Virus genome (UHGV): UHGV-0024713
DNA from: a virus
Direction: 5' to 3' (one strand)
DNA: 44,680 bases
The notes under the pieces were generated by a model. The model saw nothing but the letters and a program-made list of their open reading frames with translations, had not been told where the DNA came from and did not search any database. Made by a program: the position numbers and the translations under genes. Of the stretch, positions 166 to 41,772 are shown piece by piece (position 1 is the first letter of the stretch; every line of letters begins with the position of its first letter).

Positions 166-495
166 ATGAATATCGACGACGCAATCGAAATGTTAACTAA
201 GACTGTTTGCAGTGAGACTAGCCGGTCATGGGCGTATACCGATGCCGTGGGTGCGGTGCTATTTGAAATCGAACGTCTGCGACTTACCGAAAAAGAATTG
301 CGCGCGAAGCTGGAATTACTCAACGGTACGGCAGCCAGCAAGCTGCAAAAGCACAATGAAGAAATGGAAGAATACAAAAAACAGGTTATCCGTCTACGTG
401 AGGAAGGTAAATCCTGGGCTATGATCGCCGAGCTAACCGGAATCAACCAGAGCACCGTGCGCTCCTGGGTACGCAATAATAAAACTTCCAAATAA
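166..495 (+). CDS. Small DNA-binding protein with coiled-coil centre and C-terminal helix-turn-helix; putative regulator
   Basis: 109-aa ORF with RBS; C-terminal segment SWAMIAELTGINQSTVRSWV has HTH character; antisense ORF 144..491 is low-complexity. Confidence 0.5.
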   Translation: MNIDDAIEMLTKTVCSETSRSWAYTDAVGAVLFEIERLRLTEKELRAKLELLNGTAASKLQKHNEEMEEYKKQVIRLREEGKSWAMIAELTGINQSTVRSWVRNNKTSK

Positions 496-499
496 GGCT

Positions 500-2770
500 A
501 TGACCATGAGTTTAATTAAATTCGCCGTAACAAGACCCGCTAAAAAAGGCGAAAAAGCCAGGGCGGAAAACTTCCAGATGACCACCGATGAATTTTTCGA
601 ATTTATCAATGACGCGAAAGAAATCTCCTCGGTGCATATCAACAAGACCGAGGATAAAGCCGAGTATGCGCGCCGCAAGCGTAAGGCCGATGGCATCGTA
701 GCGTATACCAGTGATGGCTTACGCCGCAAGACCAGCGCGGTGGACCGCTCGATCCTGTTCTTTGATATTGACCGCACCGACACTCGCACCTTGCGCCGCT
801 GCCGTAAGGCTTTCATCGACGCGGGTCTGGAACACGTATTTCACACCACTACCGGCGACCGCCACCCGCTGAAAGGAGGCACGCGTTGCGCTCGCTTCCT
901 GGTACTCACTGACAAGCCTGTACCGGCTGAAGACCTGGGCCGCGTCCAGTATGCACTATTACACCAACTGGGGCTGTCAGATGTGGACTTCGACGATTGC
1001 ACGAAAGACACAAACCGCCTTATGTACCTGCCTCACCAGCAATCGGTTGTTAAGTGTCACTATGGCAAGCGCGCCCGCGTCCGTCGTCTGCTCCGCCTGG
1101 CTGACAAGCTGGGGGTTGAGAAAGAGGAAGTTCGCCGCGAACTGACCCAGGGCGACGACGCAGTGGCAGACGGCATTCTGGACTGGTGCTTCCAGGCAGG
1201 ATTCGAGGAGTTATCTTCCGGTCGCGGTTATGAAGTGCCATGCCCTAACGAACACCTGCACAGCGGCGAAGGGTCGACGGCTATCATGGTCAAGGATGGC
1301 GAGATCCGTTTCAAGTGTATGCACACCGGCAACGAGTGTTGCTCGGAGCTAAATAGACACCAGCACCTGGCGCTACGTCTCATCGGGATACCGGACCACC
1401 TGAACGTCGAGCCACACAATATGTCCCGTAAGCAAATCGCCGCCATCCTGCCAGGTCTGGACGACGAGGAAGTCGAATCCTTATATGATCACATTGTTGA
1501 TGCGGTTGGCGACGGCGAAGAATACGGCGTGTGCACCGATGCGGATCTGGATAACGAGCCGGTCGCACTATTCAGTAAGCACGACCCGATTATCGAGGGG
1601 TTGATTAACTTTAAATCGACCTGGTACATGGCGGGTGAGTCGAATATCGGTAAATCGTTCTACGTGCTGGGCCAAATGGGCGCTGTTGCCGCCGGTATTC
1701 CGTTCGGCGGTGCGAAGGTTGTCCAGTCGCATTGCTTCTATTTCGATGCGGAAGGTGGCGAAGCCTCCCACCAGCGTAAGGAAGCATTGCAGATCAAATA
1801 TGAGCACGACCTGGACAAGCTGCACATTATCGACCTGCAATCTCGCGGCTGGGATATCACCAGCAAGTCCGGTTTGCGTGAAGTTATCAGCTTCATCAAC
1901 CGCACCGCTAACGGCGAACCGGTTGGCCTGGTGGCGTTCGACTCCCTCAACCAGACTGTTGCGCTGCGGTCTGCCGATGCTAAACCGTTTGACGAGAACA
2001 ACGCCAGCGATATGGGTGAAGTGGTCAAAGCGCTGAAGGCCATCGCGGAAAATACAGGTGGCAGTGCGGGCGTCATCCACCACCCGGCTAAAGGTGCAAA
2101 CGGCAGCAGAACCCCACGCGGGTCCGGCGCGCTGCATGGTGCTGTCGATTCTGCGTTCTTCCTGGAACAGCCGGACGACAACCAGCCCGGACAATTGAAC
2201 CTGTATCATGAGAAGTCACGTAACGGCATCAAGCAAGCGCCACGCGGCTTCGTCCTGCTCAAGTGCAAGGTTAAGGTGGATCTCCGCAAGTCCGAGGCGT
2301 TCGAGGCGCACCAGTCCACCAGCACCGGGCCAGACTTCGGCGACGTGGTCGCCGGATGGGACGTCAAGCCGATTGCCTCCACGCCACGCGACGAGACTCT
2401 CTATCTCGTACCGGTTGCCCTGGCACCGTTCGCTATTGAACAGGCGAAGGCAGCGGGCAAAGCAGCAGTTAAGGAAGAGAACACCGCCGGACCGCGCAAC
2501 GAAAAAGAGAAAGTGCTTTATGCGGCCCTGGAAAAACTGATGGAAGATAACCCGGACCATACCGGATTCAGTAAATCGGCAATTGTCCGCCAGGCGGGAT
2601 TGGCAAAAGGTGGCACATCGACGAAGGCAATCGACGATATGGTCGAGCGCGGCGTACTCGGTTTTTATACAGACCCACACACCGGGGCCATCTATGGGTC
2701 GTCTAATATCGTCATAAAAACGAATATACCCATCACGCTTTCAGCGACCGATGACGACCTGAGTGATTAG
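500..2770 (+). CDS. Primase-polymerase / helicase fusion (PrimPol-like N-domain, Zn-ribbon, P-loop helicase core, C-terminal extension)
   Basis: N-terminal ILFFDIDR acidic motif; Cys/His cluster CPNEHLHSGE...KCMHTGNECC; Walker A GESNIGKS, Walker B-like LVAFDSL, VIHHPAKG...GSGALHGAVD typical of RepA/DnaB-like P-loop helicases. Confidence 0.7.
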   Translation: MTMSLIKFAVTRPAKKGEKARAENFQMTTDEFFEFINDAKEISSVHINKTEDKAEYARRKRKADGIVAYTSDGLRRKTSAVDRSILFFDIDRTDTRTLRRCRKAFIDAGLEHVFHTTTGDRHPLKGGTRCARFLVLTDKPVPAEDLGRVQYALLHQLGLSDVDFDDCTKDTNRLMYLPHQQSVVKCHYGKRARVRRLLRLADKLGVEKEEVRRELTQGDDAVADGILDWCFQAGFEELSSGRGYEVPCPNEHLHSGEGSTAIMVKDGEIRFKCMHTGNECCSELNRHQHLALRLIGIPDHLNVEPHNMSRKQIAAILPGLDDEEVESLYDHIVDAVGDGEEYGVCTDADLDNEPVALFSKHDPIIEGLINFKSTWYMAGESNIGKSFYVLGQMGAVAAGIPFGGAKVVQSHCFYFDAEGGEASHQRKEALQIKYEHDLDKLHIIDLQSRGWDITSKSGLREVISFINRTANGEPVGLVAFDSLNQTVALRSADAKPFDENNASDMGEVVKALKAIAENTGGSAGVIHHPAKGANGSRTPRGSGALHGAVDSAFFLEQPDDNQPGQLNLYHEKSRNGIKQAPRGFVLLKCKVKVDLRKSEAFEAHQSTSTGPDFGDVVAGWDVKPIASTPRDETLYLVPVALAPFAIEQAKAAGKAAVKEENTAGPRNEKEKVLYAALEKLMEDNPDHTGFSKSAIVRQAGLAKGGTSTKAIDDMVERGVLGFYTDPHTGAIYGSSNIVIKTNIPITLSATDDDLSD

Positions 2771-2781
2771 TTTTTGCGCGC

Positions 2782-2826
2782 ATTGGTTGCCATTTTGAGT
2801 GTTTTTATCTGGCCGTATTGGTTGCC
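2782..2826 (+). promoter_or_regulatory. Direct-repeat pair of ATTGGTTGCC motif (copies at 2782-2791 and 2817-2826)
   Basis: Two identical 10-mers 35 bp apart directly after the primase-helicase stop; same motif recurs at about 10 other intergenic loci. Confidence 0.4.
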
Positions 2827-2876
2827 GTGTAGTGTGAGTATAGTGAATAGTTATGCAATAAATCTGCATAAACTAA

Positions 2877-2978
2877 GCGGGACAAAAAGCGGGACGGACC
2901 AGGGGCGGGACAAAGCGGGACAGCACCCCTGTCCCGCCCCGGATGACGCGGCCTGGCGGGGAGCGGGACAGCGGGACA
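2877..2978. repeat. Iteron array A: six direct GCGGGACA octamers plus one inverted copy, including palindrome GCGGGACAGCACCCCTGTCCCGC (2915-2937)
   Basis: Octamers at about 2877, 2889, 2905, 2915, 2963, 2971; inverted TGTCCCGC at 2930-2937; no credible ORF. Confidence 0.7.
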
Positions 2979-2984
2979 GCACCC

Positions 2985-3034
2985 CAGTCTTTCAGACTAG
3001 ACGGGGGGTCTGGCACCCCCCTCGTCTGAGACTG
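2985..3034. other. Long G/C-cored stem-loop A (CAGTCTTTCAGACTAGACGGGGGG-loop-CCCCCCTCGTCTGAGACTG), near-identical copy at 20035-20083
   Basis: Imperfect extended inverted repeat with G6/C6 core; partner differs mainly in the loop. Confidence 0.6.
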
Positions 3035-3097
3035 CATAAAATCCTGGACTGCATAACACACGGCAACATGATGCAAAGTGCGGTCGTCGATGAACTA

Positions 3098-3107
3098 GGC
3101 AACCAAT
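3098..3107 (-). promoter_or_regulatory. Single reverse-oriented copy of the recurring motif (GGCAACCAAT on + strand)
   Basis: Matches reverse complement of ATTGGTTGCC within the non-coding hub. Confidence 0.3.
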
Positions 3108-3188
3108 GCGAGTTGCAGAATGGTGGGTGAAAAATGCAGTTTGCAGTTACAGCAGATAGCGATCAACTTTTTCATACGCATGATTAAT

Positions 3189-3229
3189 ATTGGTTGCGTC
3201 CGCCCTGGCACCTTGCTATATTGGTTGCA
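3189..3229 (+). promoter_or_regulatory. sigma70-like promoter with embedded motif pair upstream of 3248..3556
   Basis: -35 TTGCGT (3194-3199) inside motif copy 1, 17-nt spacer, -10 TATATT (3217-3222) overlapping motif copy 2 ATTGGTTGCA (3220-3229). Confidence 0.5.
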
Positions 3230-3247
3230 CACCAACATGAGGACTGA

Positions 3248-3556
3248 ATGATGAAAGCGATTATCTGGAATTACTCCCTAGCCGTGGCAAAGTTGGACGA
3301 AGCGAAAGCACTGAACGGCAACATCGACCAGGCGCTTCAGGTTGCGATACTGGCCCACCAATCAATCCGTGATGCGCTCTACCGCATGGGCGCCAGCATG
3401 GACGAACTGAGGCCGTTGCGTATGGCAATCCACGAATACGCGCGGGCATTCTCCCGTGAGCGCCTGGCGTATCGCTTCGGTATTGGCGATAGGGCAGTGA
3501 CAAACGTCGCCAGGATTAAAGCCCAGCGCGAACTATTCGACCAGCTTGCGAAATAA
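3248..3556 (+). CDS. Hypothetical early protein (102 aa)
   Basis: ORF directly downstream of the promoter candidate; no recognisable motif. Confidence 0.5.
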   Translation: MMKAIIWNYSLAVAKLDEAKALNGNIDQALQVAILAHQSIRDALYRMGASMDELRPLRMAIHEYARAFSRERLAYRFGIGDRAVTNVARIKAQRELFDQLAK

Positions 3557-7803: not shown

Positions 7804-7828
7804 GCCCGCCGATTTGGTGGGCTTTTTT
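7804..7828 (+). terminator. Intrinsic terminator; TATAAT hexamer just downstream at 7837-7842
   Basis: GCCCGCC-gattt-GGTGGGC (one G-U pair in RNA) followed by T6. Confidence 0.5.
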
Positions 7829-7912
7829 GTGCCTGTTATAATCCACCTTAGATGGCAGGGCCGTCTCCTATGTTGCCGATGGTCGGCGCATATGCACAAA
7901 AGGGCTTATATC

Positions 7913-8464
7913 ATGGCAGAAATCAAAGTTAAGGGCCGACGCGCCAAACTGGACGGACGAGTAGCAGTAACCCCGCGCCGTAAACCAGGCGAGCAAACCG
8001 AGCATACCAATCTCGGACCTGAAATCGAGTACGGAAAGCGCCGTAAAGGCGGCAAATGTGGACGCCCTACTGACTACCGATCCGTTTACTGCGACCAGCT
8101 TCGCCGCTATTTTGCCGACGCAGACGCCTGGCAGGTAAACTACTCCGATAAAGGCGCTGCACAAGTAATCCCCCGCAACAAAATGCCAACCTTCGGTCGA
8201 TTTGCCGCGGAAATCGGCGTGGGCGTAGCTTGCCTGTATCGCTGGGCGCGTGCGCATGAGGAGTTCGCCGAGGCGATGGCGGACGCTATGGAATTGCAGA
8301 AAACTTTCCTGATGGAAGCTGGCGGCGTGACCATCGCGGCAGGCTTCGCCACCTTCCTGCTTAAAGCCAACCACGGCGTCCGGGACGATGTTCCACTGGA
8401 TGACGACGAAGATGATAACGGCGACGTCGTTGTCGAACCTACCGGCAAAGGTCAGGGTGATTAA
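7913..8464 (+). CDS. Terminase small subunit (putative)
   Basis: 183-aa basic protein with HTH-like FGRFAAEIGVGVACLYRWARAHEEF and acidic C-terminus; stop overlaps the large-subunit start (TAATG). Confidence 0.5.
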   Translation: MAEIKVKGRRAKLDGRVAVTPRRKPGEQTEHTNLGPEIEYGKRRKGGKCGRPTDYRSVYCDQLRRYFADADAWQVNYSDKGAAQVIPRNKMPTFGRFAAEIGVGVACLYRWARAHEEFAEAMADAMELQKTFLMEAGGVTIAAGFATFLLKANHGVRDDVPLDDDEDDNGDVVVEPTGKGQGD

Positions 8465-9860: not shown

Positions 9861-11381
9861 ATGACCGTTAACGTTGACAACCAGCACCCGCTCTATGCGC
9901 GCATCGCGCCAGAGTGGAAAATGATCCGTGACTGCGTAGCAGGGGAGCGCGCCGTGAAGGCGTGCGGGCCATTGTACCTGCCACACCCAGCCAGTGGCGA
10001 CACTACCGACCCGAAATCCCGGGCACGGTATAAGGCGTATAAGCAACGTGCTGTCTTCCTGAACGCCACCGCCCGCACACTGAATGCGCTGTTAGGCGTC
10101 GCCTTTGCGAAACCGGTAAGTCTGGACCTTTCCGGGGCTATGGCTGACCTGATTGACGACGTAGACGGTAGCGGTATGCCATTGCCGCAACTTCTGCGCG
10201 GTGCTATGTCGGAAGTGCTGCAATCGGGCCGCGCGGGCTTTATGGTGGACTACGACCGCCAGGCTAACTTTGATGAACTGGGTAACGTAGTGCCGCAGAC
10301 CGCCGCCGAGATGGCGTCACACCGCCCGCTTATCCGCCTGTATACGGCAGAGCAGATCATCAACTGGCGGCAGACCCACGGCGTCGACACGCTAATCGTG
10401 CTGAAGGAGACGGACGAAATCAGCACCGAAGACCCGGACGACTTCGCAAACCACGAAGTTACGATCTGGACCGAGCTTCGCATGATTAACGGTGCGGCAC
10501 ACGCCCGCCGCTGGTTTTACAACGCGGACACGTCCGAGGTGCAAATGGACTTGCCGCGGGGATTCACCCGCACCGACCTTGTACCACTGGTGGATGCCGC
10601 CGGTAACGCGCTTACGCAACTGCCTTTCTGTTGGTGTGGCGCGGTGGATAACAATGCAACACCAGATGCCGCACCGCTGGCGGATATCGCGTCAATCAAC
10701 ATTAAGCACTACAACGCCGAAGCAGACGTCGCCGAGATTGCGCACATTGTGGGTCAACCTACCCTCATTGCGACTGGTCTGACCCAATCATGGGCGGACA
10801 AGAACCTGAAGGGCGGCATTGCCCTCGGTGCGACTAAGGGCGTTATCCTTGGCCAGAACATGGACGCTAAACTGATTCAGGCCGAGGAGCGCAACTTGTC
10901 TGTAGCACTGTGTGAACGCCGAGAATTGCAAATGGCTAAACTGGGCGCGGCCCTGGTCGAGAAGGGGACCGCACCCAAGACGGCAACCGAGGCGGCCTAC
11001 GATGCGCAGACAGATAACAGTATCCTGTCACTGATTGCCGGTAACGTTGAGAAGGCTTTCAACCGTGCGCTGCAAATCGTTAAGCTGTTCACCGGCGACA
11101 CCGCCGACCAGCGCGTAACGCTGAACAAGTTCTACACTGAAATCACGGTTGATGCGCAGCTTATGACCGCGATGATGGCAGGTGTGCAGACCGGTACTGT
11201 CCGACTGGCTGACTTTATCAAGTGGATGATGGCCCAGGGCGTTATTGATGACTCGCAAACCGTCGAGCAGGTGGAAGACGAATTGCGAAATCAGAATCCA
11301 TTGCCTCAAATGTCCCCCGATGCGGTAGAATCTACCGAAGAAGACCCGGGCAAGGTAGCGGACAATGGCGAAGACAATTAA
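9861..11381 (+). CDS. Portal protein (putative)
   Basis: 506-aa ORF immediately after the terminase large subunit; call by synteny and size. Confidence 0.6.
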   Translation: MTVNVDNQHPLYARIAPEWKMIRDCVAGERAVKACGPLYLPHPASGDTTDPKSRARYKAYKQRAVFLNATARTLNALLGVAFAKPVSLDLSGAMADLIDDVDGSGMPLPQLLRGAMSEVLQSGRAGFMVDYDRQANFDELGNVVPQTAAEMASHRPLIRLYTAEQIINWRQTHGVDTLIVLKETDEISTEDPDDFANHEVTIWTELRMINGAAHARRWFYNADTSEVQMDLPRGFTRTDLVPLVDAAGNALTQLPFCWCGAVDNNATPDAAPLADIASINIKHYNAEADVAEIAHIVGQPTLIATGLTQSWADKNLKGGIALGATKGVILGQNMDAKLIQAEERNLSVALCERRELQMAKLGAALVEKGTAPKTATEAAYDAQTDNSILSLIAGNVEKAFNRALQIVKLFTGDTADQRVTLNKFYTEITVDAQLMTAMMAGVQTGTVRLADFIKWMMAQGVIDDSQTVEQVEDELRNQNPLPQMSPDAVESTEEDPGKVADNGEDN

Positions 11382-12468
11382 TCAATATATGGCGGATCGA
11401 ATGATTCGCCGTCACATCTTCACCCAGCGCCTGAGCAATGATCAGGCGCGGAGGGTGCTGGCTATGTGGGAGAAGTTCCGGCCCACTTTACTGGGTAAGC
11501 TGACCGAGTTACTTGATGGCAAAAAGTCCATGAACAACAAGGCACTTACCACTCTGTTAACGCAACTAGACAAGACCGTCAAAACGGAACTGCGCGCCGA
11601 GTTTAAGGCGCTGGCGGAGAACCTTCAGGAGTTCGCCGACACCGAGGCTGATTATCTCGCTGACACACTAACGGCAGCGATCCGGCCCGCTGTCGCCGTA
11701 CCGGCTGTTGAAGTAGTTGGCGTTGTTACCGGCGCGCAGATTGCAGCGACGGCAATGAAAAACCCGTTCCAGGGTAATACGATGATGCAATGGCCTGACT
11801 CACTCTCTGAGTGGACCAGGACGCAGATCGGTAATCAGGTGCGCGCTGGATTCATCCAGGGCAAGCCGACTATGGAAATTATTGCGGACGTGAGGCGCGC
11901 GCTAGGTGGTCGCAGTGCGCAAGCCATCTCGAGCGTTGTTAAATCCGCAGTCAACCACTATGCGGCTACAGCCCGCGAACTAATGGTAAAAGCAAATGAC
12001 GATATTCTCGAAGGTCGCCAGTGGTTATCTACATTGGACACGCATACTTCTCCCATGTGCCAGCTACGCGATCGCCTGTTTTATCCGGTTGATGTTACTC
12101 CCGACACCAAAGGAAAGCGCGGCGGTAAAGTGGTGGCGGGGTCACAATATGGCGCTGGTCCGGGCAAGTTGCATTATTGTTGCCGGTCGACGGAGACGTG
12201 GAAGGTTAAAGGCATGGAGGATTGGCCCAGTGGTAAGCGTCCAGCACTGAAGGCTGACGCAGGCCGATTGCTGAGTGAGCAGGTCGACGCGCAGACTGAT
12301 TTCTTCTCATGGGTGCAGCGCCAGCCGCGCCATATCCTGGAAGAATTATACGGAGTGCAACGCGCCGACCAGATTATGCGCGGCGTGAAAGTGCCGAAGA
12401 TGTTTACCGATTCTGGCGAACTGATGACTATCGCACAGCTTAAAAACCGGGGGTTATGGCGTGATTAA
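11365..12468 (+). CDS. Head morphogenesis / minor head protein (Mu F / SPP1 gp7-like position)
   Basis: 367-aa ORF overlapping the portal 3' end; call by position. Confidence 0.5.
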   Translation: MAKTINQYMADRMIRRHIFTQRLSNDQARRVLAMWEKFRPTLLGKLTELLDGKKSMNNKALTTLLTQLDKTVKTELRAEFKALAENLQEFADTEADYLADTLTAAIRPAVAVPAVEVVGVVTGAQIAATAMKNPFQGNTMMQWPDSLSEWTRTQIGNQVRAGFIQGKPTMEIIADVRRALGGRSAQAISSVVKSAVNHYAATARELMVKANDDILEGRQWLSTLDTHTSPMCQLRDRLFYPVDVTPDTKGKRGGKVVAGSQYGAGPGKLHYCCRSTETWKVKGMEDWPSGKRPALKADAGRLLSEQVDAQTDFFSWVQRQPRHILEELYGVQRADQIMRGVKVPKMFTDSGELMTIAQLKNRGLWRD

Positions 12469-19050: not shown

Positions 19051-19073
19051 GGGGCCAGCACGGCCCCTTTTTT
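19051..19073 (+). terminator. Intrinsic terminator after the major tail gene
   Basis: GGGGCC-agca-CGGCCCC followed by T6. Confidence 0.7.
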
Positions 19074-19089
19074 ATTGGAGAATACTACA

Positions 19090-19452
19090 ATGGCTAAAGC
19101 ACCACTCTTTACACTTGACCCTAAGCCGACCTTTAAGCTGCCGATTGAGATCCCGCGCCCTGGCGAGAACGAACCAGGCAAGATGACGTTTACCGTACGC
19201 CACCGCCCGATCGATGAATTTTCGCAAACCATGCAGGACACCGAACGGAAGTTGTCGGAATATGACGACAATGACCCGGACGGCTTTAACGTTATGGTCG
19301 AGGCCATCATGCACGTCGCTGAAGGCTGGAATCTGCCGGACGAATTTAACGCGGAGAACGTCCGCCGCCTGGTGGTCAACTATCCTCGCGCGTTCGGTGT
19401 GTTCCACACGTCGTACTATCTCGAACTGATGGGATTGCGTGAAAAAAACTAA
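19090..19452 (+). CDS. Tail assembly chaperone (lambda G-like)
   Basis: 120-aa acidic protein between major tail and tape-measure genes; ends EKN* over slippery heptamer. Confidence 0.7.
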   Translation: MAKAPLFTLDPKPTFKLPIEIPRPGENEPGKMTFTVRHRPIDEFSQTMQDTERKLSEYDDNDPDGFNVMVEAIMHVAEGWNLPDEFNAENVRRLVVNYPRAFGVFHTSYYLELMGLREKN

Positions 19453-19766
19453 TTGAGGCGGCGCGGCGCTTTTATGGCCCGCCGCCACCCTCTGAAGATT
19501 TAGCCGCAAGTTTATGGGGTGCGTCCCCCGAAGATGTTTGTCCGCCTGTTGCGCTATGGCCCGACAACGCGAAGATAGTCGCAGTCTTCACAGATTGCTC
19601 CACGCAATGGCGCACCGGATTTGGTGGCGCATACGGCATAGACTACGGCGTGTTGGAGTGGTTATTTAAGATGCACGGTATCGAAAACGAGCAGCGCGCG
19701 TTTAAAGATATCAAGCTAATGGAACGAATCGCGCTTGATGAAATGGCGCAGCAGAACCCCGCATAA
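19090..19766 (+). CDS. Tail assembly chaperone frameshift fusion product (lambda G-T-like)
   Basis: -1 frame extension of about 105 codons (KKLIEAARRFYGPPPP...DEMAQQNPA) with no own start codon or RBS. Confidence 0.55.
19443..19449 (+). other. Programmed -1 ribosomal frameshift slippery heptamer A_AAA_AAC
   Basis: X_XXY_YYZ heptamer in the last codons of the chaperone gene; the -1 frame is open from here to a stop at 19764-19766. Confidence 0.6.
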
Positions 19767-19770
19767 TGAA

Positions 19771-20029
19771 GCGGGACAAAACGGGACGTCCCGTTTTGTC
19801 CCGCCCCTGCAAAACTGCATATACAATCACTTCAATTGCATAAACTCAAAGCGGGACAGGCGGGACACCCCGTTTTGTCCCGCCCTGTAAATGTGCATAC
19901 CTATGCAGATCTCGTGCATAAAGTAAGCGGGACAGAAAGCGGGACAAACAAGGGGCGGGACAGAGCGGGACAGCACCCCGTCCCCGCCAGTGCTGCCGCG
20001 GTTTTTAGTCGATCGGGACAGGCGGGACA
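19771..20029. repeat. Iteron array B: about 10 GCGGGACA-type octamers in both orientations, including a perfect 34-bp palindrome (19771-19804)
   Basis: GCGGGACAAAACGGGAC/GTCCCGTTTTGTCCCGC; octamers at about 19851, 19860, 19927, 19939, 19955, 19965, 20013, 20022; 19915-19988 is near-identical to 2865-2940. Confidence 0.7.
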
Positions 20030-20034
20030 AACCA

Positions 20035-20083
20035 CAGTCTTTCAGACTAGACGGGGGTCAACGGCCCCCCTCGTCTGAGACTG
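20035..20083. other. Stem-loop B, second copy of the 2985-3034 element
   Basis: CAGTCTTTCAGACTAGACGGGGG-tcaacgg-CCCCCCTCGTCTGAGACTG; stems conserved, loop differs. Confidence 0.6.
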
Positions 20084-20151
20084 AATAAGGTTTGTTTTAA
20101 AATCGCTGATACAATGTCAATCGGCAACTGCATAAAAAAGGGGACTGCATA

Positions 20152-22794
20152 ATGGCAGATCAAGCGGCAGGCATCACGCTCAAGGTCGATGCCTCACAAG
20201 TAAAAACGGCGAATACCGCGCTGGACTCGTTCGCGCAGAAGTCTGAGAACACCGAACGGAAAGTTAAGAAATTAAACGACACCCTCGGCAACTCGAAAAA
20301 GGTAACGAGTGACGCCGCTGGCGGGATGGAAAAGTTAGCGACTGAATCGCAGCGCGCCGCCGACGGCATGACGAAACAGGAGCGACTTGCCAACCGGTTA
20401 GGAATGTCGACCAAAAACCTGGGCTTTGCCTCACGCAACGCCGCATTCCAGTTACAGGATATCGCGGTTACGCTTGAGATGGGTATGCCGGTGCACCGCG
20501 TTATGCTTCAGCAGTTACCACAGCTTACTGGGGCGTTCGGTGGATTGGGTAACACGCTGCGTTATGTTGCTGGCTTCCTCGGTCCGGTAGGGATCGGCAT
20601 CGCAGCACTAACGGCAACGTTAGGCGTAGGAGTGGCGGTTACGTCCCGTGCCGAAAACCAGGTCGCAGCGCTTAACAAGACGCTGGCGCTGTCGGGTAAT
20701 ATCTCCGGCCTCACTGCAAACCAGATCCTGGTGCTATCCGAGAACGCCGAGCGCATGGGCGGGTCCTTCCGTAAGACGCGTGACACAATCCAGGCGCTGG
20801 CGGCGGCGGGTGTGAAAGCGGGTGCGGACTTCGGCACGCTGGCGAAAGTGGTGAATGACTTTGCGAAGGCGTCTAATCAGCCGATCTCTGACGTGGTTGA
20901 ATCCATCTCTAAATTGTCAAACGACCCAGTGGGCGGACTGCGTGCGCTGGCGGATAAGTATCATGTCGTAACCGAAGCGCAGATCCAGCAGGTGCAATCG
21001 CTTGTAGATATGGGGCGTGAAACGGACGCGGTTGCTCTGGCTAACAAAACCGCCGCCGCGTCGTTCGCCAGCATGACCAACGATGTCAAGGCCAACATGG
21101 GTACGCTTGAGCGGTCGATGAACGTCGTTACATCAGCAGCGAAATCTATGTGGGATGCCATCCTGGATGTGGGCCGCGCGCAGTCATCTAATGAGTCCGA
21201 GATGAAAGCGCGTGAGTCCTTGCAGCGCATGACCACGGCTTACTATGCCGAGATGAAAGCGGTAAACGCTGCCGGTGGGGTGGTGACCGAAGCGCAAAAA
21301 GCGCGTATTAACATGCTTTACAGCGAACTGGTCGCCCAGGAAAAGGTGGTGGCGACACTTACCCTGCGCAACCGTGCCGAGCGAGACAACGCCAGCGCCG
21401 CTGACGAAGCAGCAAAGGCGAACGAGGAGGCAAACCGCACCGCCCGCGACCGCGCCGCGTTTGAGAAGGAGTTCGCAACCAACGCGAAGAGGCGCGCCGA
21501 CGAGATCGCCCGCCTCAATTTGCTGAATAAGCGGGGCGTGATTAGCGAAAAAGAACTCGCCGAGGCGGTGAAGCAGGTAAACGAGCGCTACAAAGACCCG
21601 GCCCCGAAAAAGGCCGCGGCTGTTCGCGTGGATTCCGGTATGAAAATGCTGGAGGTTGCACGTAGCGAACTGGCACAGCTTCGAGAATCAGGCAAGCAGA
21701 TCGAAGCCAACGCGTCGACGCAGACCCGAGCGCAACGCGCTCAATCAGCACTTAACAAGCTGATCGCAGATCATGAACAGTTAATCGCAGCAAGCAAAGA
21801 AAGAGCACTAACGGCAGCGGAAAAGCAGCAAATTGCGGGTTTCGAGGCGGTTAAATCGGTACGCGAGCAGATCGTCGAAGAAGCCAAATTGCTGGACGCG
21901 AAAGAGAAGCAGATCAAGGCACATGCCCAGGTCGAGGCATTCATCAAGAACCAGAACGCCGAGCTAAAAGCCACCGCGGCGGGCTATGCGCTTTCTACTC
22001 GCGAAGCGGCTAACCTGCGCGAAGAATTGCAGCTAATTGACCGCCTTCAGCGTGTTGGTGCTAACGATACCGATATCGACAAGGCGGTGTCTAAGCTGCG
22101 TGAAGTTCAGGACGCACAGACCGGTGCTAACGCCTCGCTATGGGATGGATTCAGTCGCGGGCTTCGCGATAGTGTGGATGAAATGGGTAACGGCTATACG
22201 CAGATGACGTCACTCACAAAATTCACGTTCGGCGCTATGCAGGACACGATGAACGAGTTTTTCGAGACTGGCAAGCTGAACGCAAAGGATATGGTTAAGT
22301 CCATCCTGAGCGAATTAATCAAGCTGGCTACATCGCAGGCGTTCAAGTCCATCGTTAGCGCTTTCGGTGGCGACGGCGGCAAAAACGGATTGTTCGGCGC
22401 TATCTTTTCCGGCCTGACTAAGAACGCAGACGGCGGAGCGTACGCAGGGGGCAACCTCGCGGCCTATTCGGGGCAAGTGGTAAGCCAGCCCACCTTTTTC
22501 AGTTATGGCGTCCAGGCGTTCGCTAAGGGCGCAGGATTGATGGGTGAGGCCGGACCTGAAGCCATCATGCCACTGAAGCGCGGCCCGGACGGCAAACTTG
22601 GAGTTGCCGCTGCCGGAGGTGTCGGGGGAATGATTGTAACGACCAACGTTAACATGGGGACCGGTAAGACGGATACCAGTGTTAGCGGACCAGACCCGCG
22701 CACCGCGCAGGCGTTCGGAAAGCAAATCACCGAGTCTGTCAAGGCCGAGATCGTGAAGGCGACGAAACCGGGTGGTGTACTTTACAAACGATGA
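20152..22794 (+). CDS. Tail tape measure protein
   Basis: 880-aa Ala/Gln/Lys-rich helical protein after the G/T chaperone; Gly-rich C-terminal region. Confidence 0.9.
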   Translation: MADQAAGITLKVDASQVKTANTALDSFAQKSENTERKVKKLNDTLGNSKKVTSDAAGGMEKLATESQRAADGMTKQERLANRLGMSTKNLGFASRNAAFQLQDIAVTLEMGMPVHRVMLQQLPQLTGAFGGLGNTLRYVAGFLGPVGIGIAALTATLGVGVAVTSRAENQVAALNKTLALSGNISGLTANQILVLSENAERMGGSFRKTRDTIQALAAAGVKAGADFGTLAKVVNDFAKASNQPISDVVESISKLSNDPVGGLRALADKYHVVTEAQIQQVQSLVDMGRETDAVALANKTAAASFASMTNDVKANMGTLERSMNVVTSAAKSMWDAILDVGRAQSSNESEMKARESLQRMTTAYYAEMKAVNAAGGVVTEAQKARINMLYSELVAQEKVVATLTLRNRAERDNASAADEAAKANEEANRTARDRAAFEKEFATNAKRRADEIARLNLLNKRGVISEKELAEAVKQVNERYKDPAPKKAAAVRVDSGMKMLEVARSELAQLRESGKQIEANASTQTRAQRAQSALNKLIADHEQLIAASKERALTAAEKQQIAGFEAVKSVREQIVEEAKLLDAKEKQIKAHAQVEAFIKNQNAELKATAAGYALSTREAANLREELQLIDRLQRVGANDTDIDKAVSKLREVQDAQTGANASLWDGFSRGLRDSVDEMGNGYTQMTSLTKFTFGAMQDTMNEFFETGKLNAKDMVKSILSELIKLATSQAFKSIVSAFGGDGGKNGLFGAIFSGLTKNADGGAYAGGNLAAYSGQVVSQPTFFSYGVQAFAKGAGLMGEAGPEAIMPLKRGPDGKLGVAAAGGVGGMIVTTNVNMGTGKTDTSVSGPDPRTAQAFGKQITESVKAEIVKATKPGGVLYKR

Positions 22795-33245: not shown

Positions 33246-33267
33246 TGCAACCAACCTATTGGTTGCA
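33246..33267. promoter_or_regulatory. Inverted pair of the motif (TGCAACCAA-cct-ATTGGTTGCA) with adjacent TATAAT
   Basis: Palindromic arrangement between two minus-strand genes; minus strand reads TTGCAA-18-TATAGT. Confidence 0.45.
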
Positions 33268-35155: not shown

Positions 35156-35187
35156 TATAATGCAACCAATATGATTAAGCAACCAAT
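35156..35187 (-). promoter_or_regulatory. Promoter candidate with motif pair upstream of 34856..35107
   Basis: + strand TATAAT-TGCAACCAAT...AGCAACCAAT; minus strand TTGCTT-17-TATATT. Confidence 0.45.
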
Positions 35188-41746: not shown

Positions 41747-41772
41747 CTTGGTTGCCAATCTACTTGGTTGCG
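41747..41772 (+). promoter_or_regulatory. Direct pair of CTTGGTTGC(C/G) motif variants upstream of the SSB-like gene
   Basis: CTTGGTTGCC (41747-41756) and CTTGGTTGCG (41763-41772). Confidence 0.35.

Follow-up and report, generated by a model that had tools for sequence, protein, structure and literature searches.

The window analyzed here, a stretch of 44,680 nucleotides (UHGV virus genome UHGV-0024713), contains a 385-bp non-coding spacer, termed region A, between the G-T tail assembly chaperone gene and the tape-measure gene (positions 19767–20151). The spacer is densely populated with copies of the octamer GCGGGACA in both orientations, and a core of ~190 bp recurs as region B immediately after the gene for the phage primase-helicase. 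We assign a probability of about 0.6 to the interpretation that region A is an iteron-type initiator-binding module, functioning as a second origin or as a fork barrier, with a conserved extended -10 promoter of the tape-measure gene attached to it. By its sequence, the window belongs to Dhillonvirus, the genus of HK578/SO-1-like virulent siphophages, and represents an Escherichia coli phage; the 1.1 kb around the spacer is 92–93.5% identical to the Escherichia phages GeorgBuechner, bob, and mckay and to the Sodalis phage SO-1. The existence of the block is already on record as a GenBank repeat region. The SO-1 record (GQ502199) carries at 11214–11597 a repeat_region annotation 'region A', described as similar to a 'region B' that is located directly 3' of the "replicative helicase/primase" gene. 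The general kind of element, a duplicated iteron-type origin-like module, is known, and this particular case was previously uncharacterized; our literature search found no paper establishing a function for the repeat block, and a search on the octamer sequence returned irrelevant matches only.

Octamer arrays of regions A and B

The window contains 19 exact copies of the octamer GCGGGACA, where 2.05 would be expected; none of 100 shuffles reached 19. Ten of these copies lie within 19771–20029, eight on the plus strand and two on the minus strand. The shorter core CGGGAC is found 13 times in the spacer, 7 times in 2771–3249, and 13 times in the remaining 43.8 kb, that is, at densities of 34 per kb in region A, 15 per kb in region B, and 0.3 per kb elsewhere. 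The aligned sites yield a 10-bp consensus, RRGCGGGACA. Both regions, with the components of region A in their order along the plus strand, are as follows.

19767..20151, + strand: region A, the whole non-coding gap from the G-T chaperone to the tape-measure gene, homologous to the SO-1 'region A'
19771..19804: perfect 34-bp palindrome built from GCGGGACA, ACGGGACG, and an inverted copy of each (four sites in total)
19805..19850: AT-richer block 1, with TGCATA and TTGCATAAA motifs
19851..19884: second site cluster, two direct and one inverted GCGGGACA, forming an imperfect hairpin
19886..19926: AT-richer block 2, TGCATA-CC-TATGCA ... TGCATAAAGTAA, the start of the ~190-bp core common to regions A and B
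19927..19972, + strand: four direct GCGGGACA sites with start-to-start spacing of 12, 16, and 10 bp
19973..20012: GC-rich spacer with a degenerate inverted site, GTCCCCGCC
20013..20030, + strand: two direct sites, TCGGGACA and GCGGGACA, 9 bp apart
20035..20083: long imperfect hairpin, CAGTCT..CAGAC..GGGGG / CCCCCC..GTCTG..AGACTG, lacking a U/T tract on its 3' side
20107..20115, + strand: extended -10 promoter-like element TGATACAAT, 37 nt before the tape-measure ATG
20126..20152, + strand: two CTGCATAA motifs, one on each side of the ribosome-binding site AAAAGGGGA, the second overlapping the tape-measure ATG
2771..3249, + strand: region B, non-coding, beginning 1 bp after the stop codon of the primase-helicase gene

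The core of region B (2850–3034) is homologous to 19890–20083 of region A. The order of elements in the common core begins with the TGCATA/TATGCA...TGCATAAA stretch, followed by four direct sites spaced 12, 16, and 10 bp and an inverted site, then by a GC-rich spacer, two more direct sites, and the hairpin CAGTCTTTCAGACTAGACGGGGG-loop-CCCCCCTCGTCTGAGACTG. Region B contains six exact copies of GCGGGACA within 2877–2978; the four-direct-site arrangement of region A is repeated at 2877–2922, and a near-identical copy of the region A hairpin is located at 2985–3034. The inverted repeat is intact in region B (2904–2940) and degenerate in region A (19973–20012), whereas two additional 5' site clusters, the palindrome and the imperfect one at 19851–19884, are confined to region A. 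Two-thirds of the TGCATAA copies in the window (8/12) fall within the two regions. Variants that mark region B in one phage are found in region A of another, so sequence is exchanged between the two copies.

Conservation was assessed on distinct sequences of both regions, 17 for each. Between 11 and 14 CGGGAC cores are present in all 17 copies of region A, and the loops and inter-site spacers vary among both sets. Mean pairwise identity is 0.90 for the core columns versus 0.81 for the other spacer columns (Mann-Whitney p = 0.0004, the columns not being independent). The hairpin arms are nearly invariant among close relatives, with the apparent invariance of the 5' arm being partly an artefact, since this arm served as the search pattern and thereby biased the sample. 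Searching with the spacer alone matched 159 phage records in GenBank (152 with coverage of 80% or more), and the spacer was found in every Dhillonvirus record retrieved as well as in more distant relatives; thus, as judged from its distribution, it is not a recent insert.

The first-pass annotation had described the spacer as a non-coding insert with about ten octamers in both orientations, an AT-richer block at 19805–19850, and a conserved stem-loop. All four features stand: the gene bounds and the lack of a conserved open reading frame (ORF) in the 17 relatives agree with non-coding status, the octamers amount to 10 exact copies (8 plus, 2 minus) and 13 cores, the block has a G+C content of ~42% versus ~54% around it, and the stem-loop corresponds to the hairpin at 20035–20083 with its second copy in region B. 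The only long plus-strand frame was rejected as a small gene, as its length varies between 241 and 244 nt, breaking the frame, and it is interrupted by stop codons in 6 of the 17 relatives; the spacer ORFs annotated as hypothetical proteins in some records are not genes. The same annotation had also emphasized a perfect 34-bp palindrome. It is real, its arms (19771–19787 and 19788–19804) being 17 nt each, 100% complementary, and without a gap, and as single-stranded DNA it has a predicted fold of -19.8 kcal/mol (z = -8). Its perfect pairing, however, is specific to this phage: relatives have GCGGGAC-AGGCGGGAC|GTCCCGTTTTGTCCCGC at this position, where the sites are retained and the AAAA/TTTT pairing is lost, and conservation is limited to the central CGGGACGTCCCG and the outer sites. 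Hence, it is the CGGGAC sites, rather than the palindrome as such, that have been maintained.

Chaperone and tape-measure genes were expected to be normally adjacent, and in Guernseyvirinae, which have another tail module, T and the tape-measure gene are indeed contiguous. A conserved element does split the two genes here; it is not confined to this place, as a second copy follows the primase-helicase gene. The further claim that a cis-acting element inside a late operon is unusual is relative, SPP1 oriR being a described precedent. Taken together, the data support the view of the spacer as a conserved, non-coding, and putatively cis-acting element between the chaperone and tape-measure genes.

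Several database records break inside region A or B, including the spacer-matching records H69 and H70, the start of the eiAU record KF772233, and the contig of loci L041/L135 (Logan ERR11172925_9173); the ~190-bp repeat is a hazard for short-read assembly of this phage group. The records of vB_EcoS_WFI, PTXU06, Zar3M, and BMA1 end and begin at one and the same position, ~3148/3149, 115 bp past the region B hairpin (...GCAGTTTGCAGTTA | CAGCAGATAGCG). This common end may be either a shared convention or a real physical end; other papers predict headful packaging or a 10-nt cos end elsewhere.

Octamer switching and the candidate reader

The repeat scaffold was followed through relatives with a homologous primase-helicase gene. 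The same succession of GAATAGTTATGCA..TGCATAAA, sites, hairpin, and CGGCAAC follows this gene, and other octamers are found in it.

L040, L045: primase-helicase identity ~69%, octamer GCGGGACA after the gene
L041, L042: identity 68–70%, octamer GTGTGGCA after the gene
L043: identity 68%, octamer GTGTGCCA after the gene
L044: identity 66%, octamer GGTGCCA after the gene
Klebsiella phage VLCpiS11a: identity 48%, octamer TTGCGAGT, including a perfect 20-bp palindrome
Salmonella phage St162: identity 43%, octamer GGGGGAGA

A hairpin is located 3' of the sites in every listed locus with enough sequence to show it (the contigs of L041 and L044 break off within the block), and the hairpins of relatives differ partly or wholly in sequence, e.g., GACGGGGTG...CACCCGTC in L042. 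In every genome where both copies are readable, regions A and B have the identical octamer. A phage of the GTGTGGCA type is represented by a 27.6-kb contig that starts inside region A upstream of the tape-measure gene (L135) and ends inside region B (L041), as expected if the assembly broke at the repeat; its region A has GTGTGGCA sites, the hairpin, and TGATACAAT, and the same sites are present at its region B end. The L137/L138 phage (52% tape-measure identity) carries GGGAT(C/A) in both places, and Edwardsiella phage eiAU (38% tape-measure identity) carries CGCCCCG in both, its alignable segment being AAATCGCCCCG.GCGCCCGCCCC.GGGGCA.TTATTGATTTA. In VLCpiS11a the chaperone and tape-measure genes are contiguous, and a second TTGCGAGT cluster is located between the head-morphogenesis and spanin genes; St162 has a single cluster only. 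Two similar blocks, the second in the late genes, are thus also observed in L135–L137, eiAU, and VLCpiS11a. Comparison of these sequences indicates that a second copy in the late region is recurrent, that its position can vary from lineage to lineage, and that its specificity goes along with that of the copy next to the primase-helicase gene. A scan of viral contigs for GTGTGGCA-type relatives returned 78 unrelated loci, none of them Dhillon-like; the L135 locus was obtained through protein look-ups.

Between the T frame and region A, small minus-strand genes with TTGGTTGC at their start are located in L136 (1353–2101) and in eiAU (L140, 24366–24719). By analogy with SPP1, these genes may be moron-like cargo.

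The primase-helicase is the only neighbor of the repeat block that is retained across all lineages, and the seven octamer types follow its lineages. This protein and the small helix-turn-helix (HTH) protein encoded next to it were considered as candidate readers of the octamer.

500..2770, + strand: primase-helicase, 756 aa (PHROG replicative helicase-primase, Pfam AAA_25)
2501..2716, + strand: stretch encoding the winged helix predicted by AlphaFold2, primase-helicase residues ~668–739
166..495, + strand: small HTH protein, 109 aa (HTH_23 and Sigma70_r4_2), upstream of the primase-helicase

Residues 17–179 of the primase-helicase match primase PHROGs, residues 359–533 match AAA_25 (RepA-like), and the predicted winged helix occupies residues ~668–739. 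The AlphaFold2 model of this C-terminal domain has a helix-strand-helix-helix-strand-strand topology (predicted local distance difference test, pLDDT, of 81–91). The most divergent parts of the protein are the C-terminal winged-helix domain and the N-terminus. Of the residues fixed in the GCGGGACA group and different elsewhere, approximately nine fall in the N-terminal 240 positions, none in the conserved core (241–560), and nine in ~560–756 (five of them in 681–756). A natural variant, P0005 (L141), separates the two ends: its N-terminal 200 aa are only 33–37% identical, residues 600–756 are 94–100% identical, and the octamer is still GCGGGACA. This N-terminal swap with an unchanged octamer makes the N-terminal domain an unlikely reader and points to the C-terminal part. 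Outside the N-terminal ~200 residues P0005 is 89–100% identical, a domain swap within an essential replication gene, and the sequence of P0002 has a similarly divergent N-terminus. On the basis of a comparison of few sequences and the structural model, the winged helix at the C-terminus of the primase-helicase is the most likely reader of the octamer.

The small HTH protein was ruled out as the reader, since phages with four different octamer types have almost the same HTH half in this protein. This protein, which is similar to sigma-70 region 4, probably reads another, invariant motif, TTGGTTGC. The window contains 19 copies of TTGGTTGC against ~2 expected, mostly in intergenic promoter-like places and often in pairs (including 2783–3228, 33247–33266, 35162–35186, 41748–41771, and 44648), five of them in region B and none in region A; the motif is retained in Eiauvirus and Guernseyvirinae relatives. 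Its distribution resembles a phage-wide promoter or operator code, and at 3190–3228 it overlaps both the -35 and the -10 boxes of a sigma-70-like promoter in region B (TTGCGT-17-TATATT, 3192–3220).

Association of similar arrays with replication genes extends beyond these phages. Viral contigs were searched for a pattern of two adjacent sites, and the matches comprised Dhillonviruses and unrelated elements. Three IMG/VR contigs (L046, L048, and L054) have CGGGACA arrays within genes of the PHROG "replication initiation O-like / DnaD-like helicase loader", and in L049/L051 and L056 the arrays start directly 3' of other AAA_25 helicase genes, encoding proteins of ~680–750 residues. None of the loci from this search has an array beside an identifiable transcription factor. 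Thus, by sequence, arrays of the CGGGACA motif accompany replication initiators. The arrays in L046, L048, and L054 translate as repeated ..RD..GT.. peptides (NRDMIGTESGTG, KRDSSGTAAGQQRDK), and the motif is doubly constrained there, as an iteron and as coding sequence. BLASTP of the C-terminal domain against the C-termini of the other helicases with CGGGACA arrays and against the O-like initiators detected no similarity, and sequence searches of PDB with the primase-helicase produced only a weak match to RSF1010 RepA (1G8Y).

Proposed mechanism and competing explanations

The sites occur in both orientations and are conserved without conserved pairing of their spacers, which fits a protein reading double-stranded DNA rather than an RNA or DNA stem. 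We infer the following mechanism, including the identity of the binder, the melting, and the activity as origin or barrier. The RRGCGGGACA sites would be double-stranded-DNA binding sites of the phage replication initiator, and one protein would occupy both region B, beside its own gene, and region A in the tail operon. Cooperative binding to pairs of sites 8–12 bp apart, near the AT-richer blocks, would melt the DNA, allowing the RepA-like hexameric helicase to load and the primase to prime; the conserved long hairpin would be extruded in the melted strand and there signal loading or priming, like ssiA/ssiB of the RSF1010 oriV. Region B would then be the origin beside the initiator gene. Region A might be a second origin or, as has been proposed for SPP1 oriR, a barrier formed by the bound initiator, at which forks arriving from region B stall and recombination-dependent concatemer synthesis is triggered. 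Genes for a Gp2.5-like annealing protein and for exonucleases are present in the phage. The last ~60 bp of the spacer would constitute a separate part, an extended -10 promoter restarting transcription of the tape-measure and distal tail genes.

Several observations weigh against this mechanism. The conserved promoter at the 3' end shows, as far as a sequence motif can, that part of the spacer serves transcription. Region A is located ~17 kb from the primase-helicase gene, and only region B adjoins it. The octamer common to regions A and B could stem from gene conversion rather than from selection by one reader. Cumulative GC skew tracks gene orientation and gives no signal at either region, AT skew was likewise rejected as an origin marker, and the AT-richer blocks (~42% G+C) would be weak unwinding elements; the blocks at 19805–19850 and 20085–20125 have 36–42% G+C versus ~54%, and are only moderately AT-richer. 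The link between the winged helix and the octamer type comprises seven sequences and is confounded by phylogeny. Foldseek matches of the C-terminal model are winged-helix proteins (MarR, ArsR, CAP, histone H1, and ORC), and all of them are weak, the best having E = 0.0099 and none reaching E <= 0.001. Finally, the near-invariant 5' arm of the hairpin suggests a sequence-specific reader of its own. Candidate DnaA boxes were rejected by eye, since the TTATGCAGT-type 9-mers differ from TTATNCACA at two consensus positions.

The same promoter is the starting point of an alternative in which the whole block controls transcription: the octamers would be operators for a phage activator or repressor at the tape-measure promoter and, in region B, at that of the middle/late operon, and the hairpin would end or pause upstream transcripts. 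We regard this as unlikely. The element TGATACAAT at 20107–20115 fits the sigma-70 extended -10 consensus TGnTAnAAT, is by its sequence a putative promoter, and is invariant in 17 of 17 distinct copies of region A as well as present in L135; yet it is absent in L136, L137, and eiAU, where the sites and the hairpin are retained. The sites lie 80–340 bp upstream of the -10 element, and their number, 13, far exceeds the needs of a promoter. A strong terminator just upstream of G makes re-initiation before the tape-measure gene reasonable, region B, with its sigma-70-like promoter, separates the early primase-helicase operon from the lysis and structural genes downstream, and SPP1 oriR is likewise bracketed by transcription signals. 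On the other hand, the promoter-associated motif of this phage, TTGGTTGC, is absent from region A despite its 19 copies against 2 expected, the only nearby HTH regulator is constant across octamer types, and arrays of the same kind are associated with replication genes in unrelated elements. No T tract follows the hairpin: an intrinsic terminator at 20035–20083 was rejected, as the next bases are AATAAGG and the terminator scan lists none on the plus strand of the spacer.

An element operating at the RNA level is very unlikely. According to this explanation, the spacer is transcribed, and its hairpins form an RNase III processing or stabilizing site, or a small RNA, by which the relative expression of chaperone and tape-measure protein is set. 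The spacer does fold far better than shuffled sequences (z = -7.7), but the reverse strand folds equally well (z = -7.7), as expected of inverted repeats in DNA. The long imperfect stem of ~20 bp is similar to an RNase III substrate, the processing sites of T7 and lambda being the comparison, and a hairpin is held at the same position in lineages where its sequence differs; nonetheless, the pairing of the palindrome spacer is not conserved while the sites are, the sites occur in both orientations, and region B carries the same module after a different operon. The wholesale switch of octamers between lineages is typical of a changed protein specificity. Rfam contained no family matching at gathering thresholds; the sub-threshold matches were only microRNA hairpins and one antisense RNA family (E of at least 0.011).

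Least probable of all is a functionless duplicate of region B, arisen by illegitimate recombination and kept by gene conversion, or a pac-like terminase site: regions A and B do exchange variants, VLCpiS11a has its second copy elsewhere, after a head-morphogenesis gene, and several records and metagenomic contigs start or end inside one of the regions, but the presence of 11–14 cores in 17/17 distinct copies and retention down to 38% tape-measure identity (eiAU) argue for selection, the contig ends reflect assembler behavior at a 190-bp repeat, and headful packaging is predicted to start near the small terminase gene (PMC9022532), which is located at 7814–8464, 11 kb away from region A.

Comparison with known replication systems and gene context

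Region A is most likely a second initiator-binding site, much like SPP1 oriR. In SPP1, oriL is part of the initiator gene, oriR breaks the otherwise conserved order of the late morphogenesis genes, gp38 binds both, and oriR is bracketed by transcription signals and accompanied by moron genes (PMC6316719). A role in arresting forks and redirecting replication toward concatemers has been proposed for the second SPP1 block (PMC6316719; PMC3485210). Both phages therefore share two blocks of repeats with an AT-rich stretch, one at the initiator gene and the other within late morphogenesis genes, and moron genes beside the second block have their counterpart beside region A in L136 and eiAU. The differences are considerable. 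SPP1 employs a separate origin-binding protein, a loader, a DnaB-type helicase, and the host replisome, whereas this phage has a fused RepA/AAA_25 primase-helicase and its own T7-like polymerase; oriL is inside gene 38, whereas region B follows the gene; oriR is among head genes, whereas region A separates the tail chaperone and tape-measure genes; and the conserved long hairpin has no stated SPP1 counterpart. No homologues of gp38, the gp39 loader, or the gp40 DnaB-type helicase were found among the replication genes of the window; the resemblance is functional and not by descent.

In satellite phage P4, octamer sites, direct and inverted, occur at two loci, ori and crr, and their reader is the winged helix at the C-terminus of one primase-helicase polypeptide; direct and inverted octamers likewise occupy two separate places in the present genome. 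P4 alpha and pRN1 ORF904 are primase-helicase polypeptides with a C-terminal winged helix (PMC2777425), the same order of primase, helicase, and (here predicted) winged helix in one polypeptide as in the phage primase-helicase. P4 alpha differs in combining a DnaG-type primase with a superfamily 3 helicase; the protein described here is AAA_25/RepA-like, and its N-terminus matches phage primase families only. No D5_N or superfamily 3 (D5-like) match was obtained for its core, which is AAA_25 (RepA/RecA-like), and no sequence similarity to P4 alpha was found.

The oriV of plasmid RSF1010 comprises iterons, an AT-rich region, and the ssiA/ssiB hairpins 3' of the iterons, and is served by the RepA helicase, the RepB' primase, and RepC. 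The phage helicase belongs to the Pfam family of RSF1010 RepA (AAA_25), and the succession of iterons and a conserved hairpin is also similar to that with the ssi sites. In RSF1010, however, three separate proteins are involved, with a dedicated RepC reading 20-bp iterons, and a single origin has two ssi hairpins on opposite strands, whereas here each of two blocks in direct orientation has one hairpin. The lambda ori combines iterons, an AT-rich stretch, and a palindrome; the CGGGACA-core arrays inside the O-like initiator genes of L046, L048, and L054 have the lambda arrangement, whereas regions A and B are intergenic, and this phage has no O-like gene.

Phage defense provides another connection to replication. 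Escape mutants of HK578 from the P2 OLD defense map to the helicase-primase gp46 and the gp45-46 promoter, and P2 OLD is reportedly activated when phage origins form single-stranded hairpins (bioRxiv 10.64898/2026.07.10.737580). Candidate triggers of OLD include the palindromes of both regions, and an origin-like function of these regions may explain the mapping of OLD escape to the HK578 helicase-primase. A broader proposal, which we advance as rather doubtful, is that regions A and B represent a two-site replication control widespread in virulent siphophages (Dhillonvirus, Eiauvirus, and some Guernseyvirinae), where the winged helix of a RepA-type primase-helicase would read rapidly re-specified octamers, the late-operon copy would be a programmed fork barrier or second origin timing the switch to concatemers, and the palindromic sites and long hairpin, extruded as single-stranded DNA, would be sensed by OLD and Lamassu.

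Dhillonviruses are commonly encountered E. coli phages that are used in collections for therapy and biocontrol, with 159 genome records matched here, and the analysis provides candidates for the start of their replication: the cis sites A and B, the motif RRGCGGGACA, and reader residues ~668–739. Octamers of the series GCGGGACA, GTGTGGCA, GTGTGCCA, GGTGCCA, etc. are putative natural specificity switches for dissecting winged-helix recognition and could serve orthogonal phage replicons. Insertion of a payload between the chaperone and tape-measure genes would disrupt a conserved element.

The remaining features around region A are listed below. Other replication genes of the window encode a T7-like polymerase, a Gp2.5-like single-stranded DNA-binding/annealing protein, a SNF2-type helicase, and exonucleases.

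19051..19067, + strand: canonical intrinsic terminator, GGGGCCAGCACGGCCCC followed by TTTTTT, between the tail-tube gene and G
19090..19452, + strand: tail assembly chaperone G (Pfam Phage_TAC_4)
To the TAA at 19764..19766, + strand: T, the -1 frameshift extension, open in the -1 reading frame after the G slippery site
20152..22794, + strand: tape-measure protein gene (TMP_2 and Tape_meas_lam_C matches)

The A-run slippery site GAAAAAAAC at 19441–19449 is the G-T frameshift site, and the T part is absent or mis-annotated in several public records.

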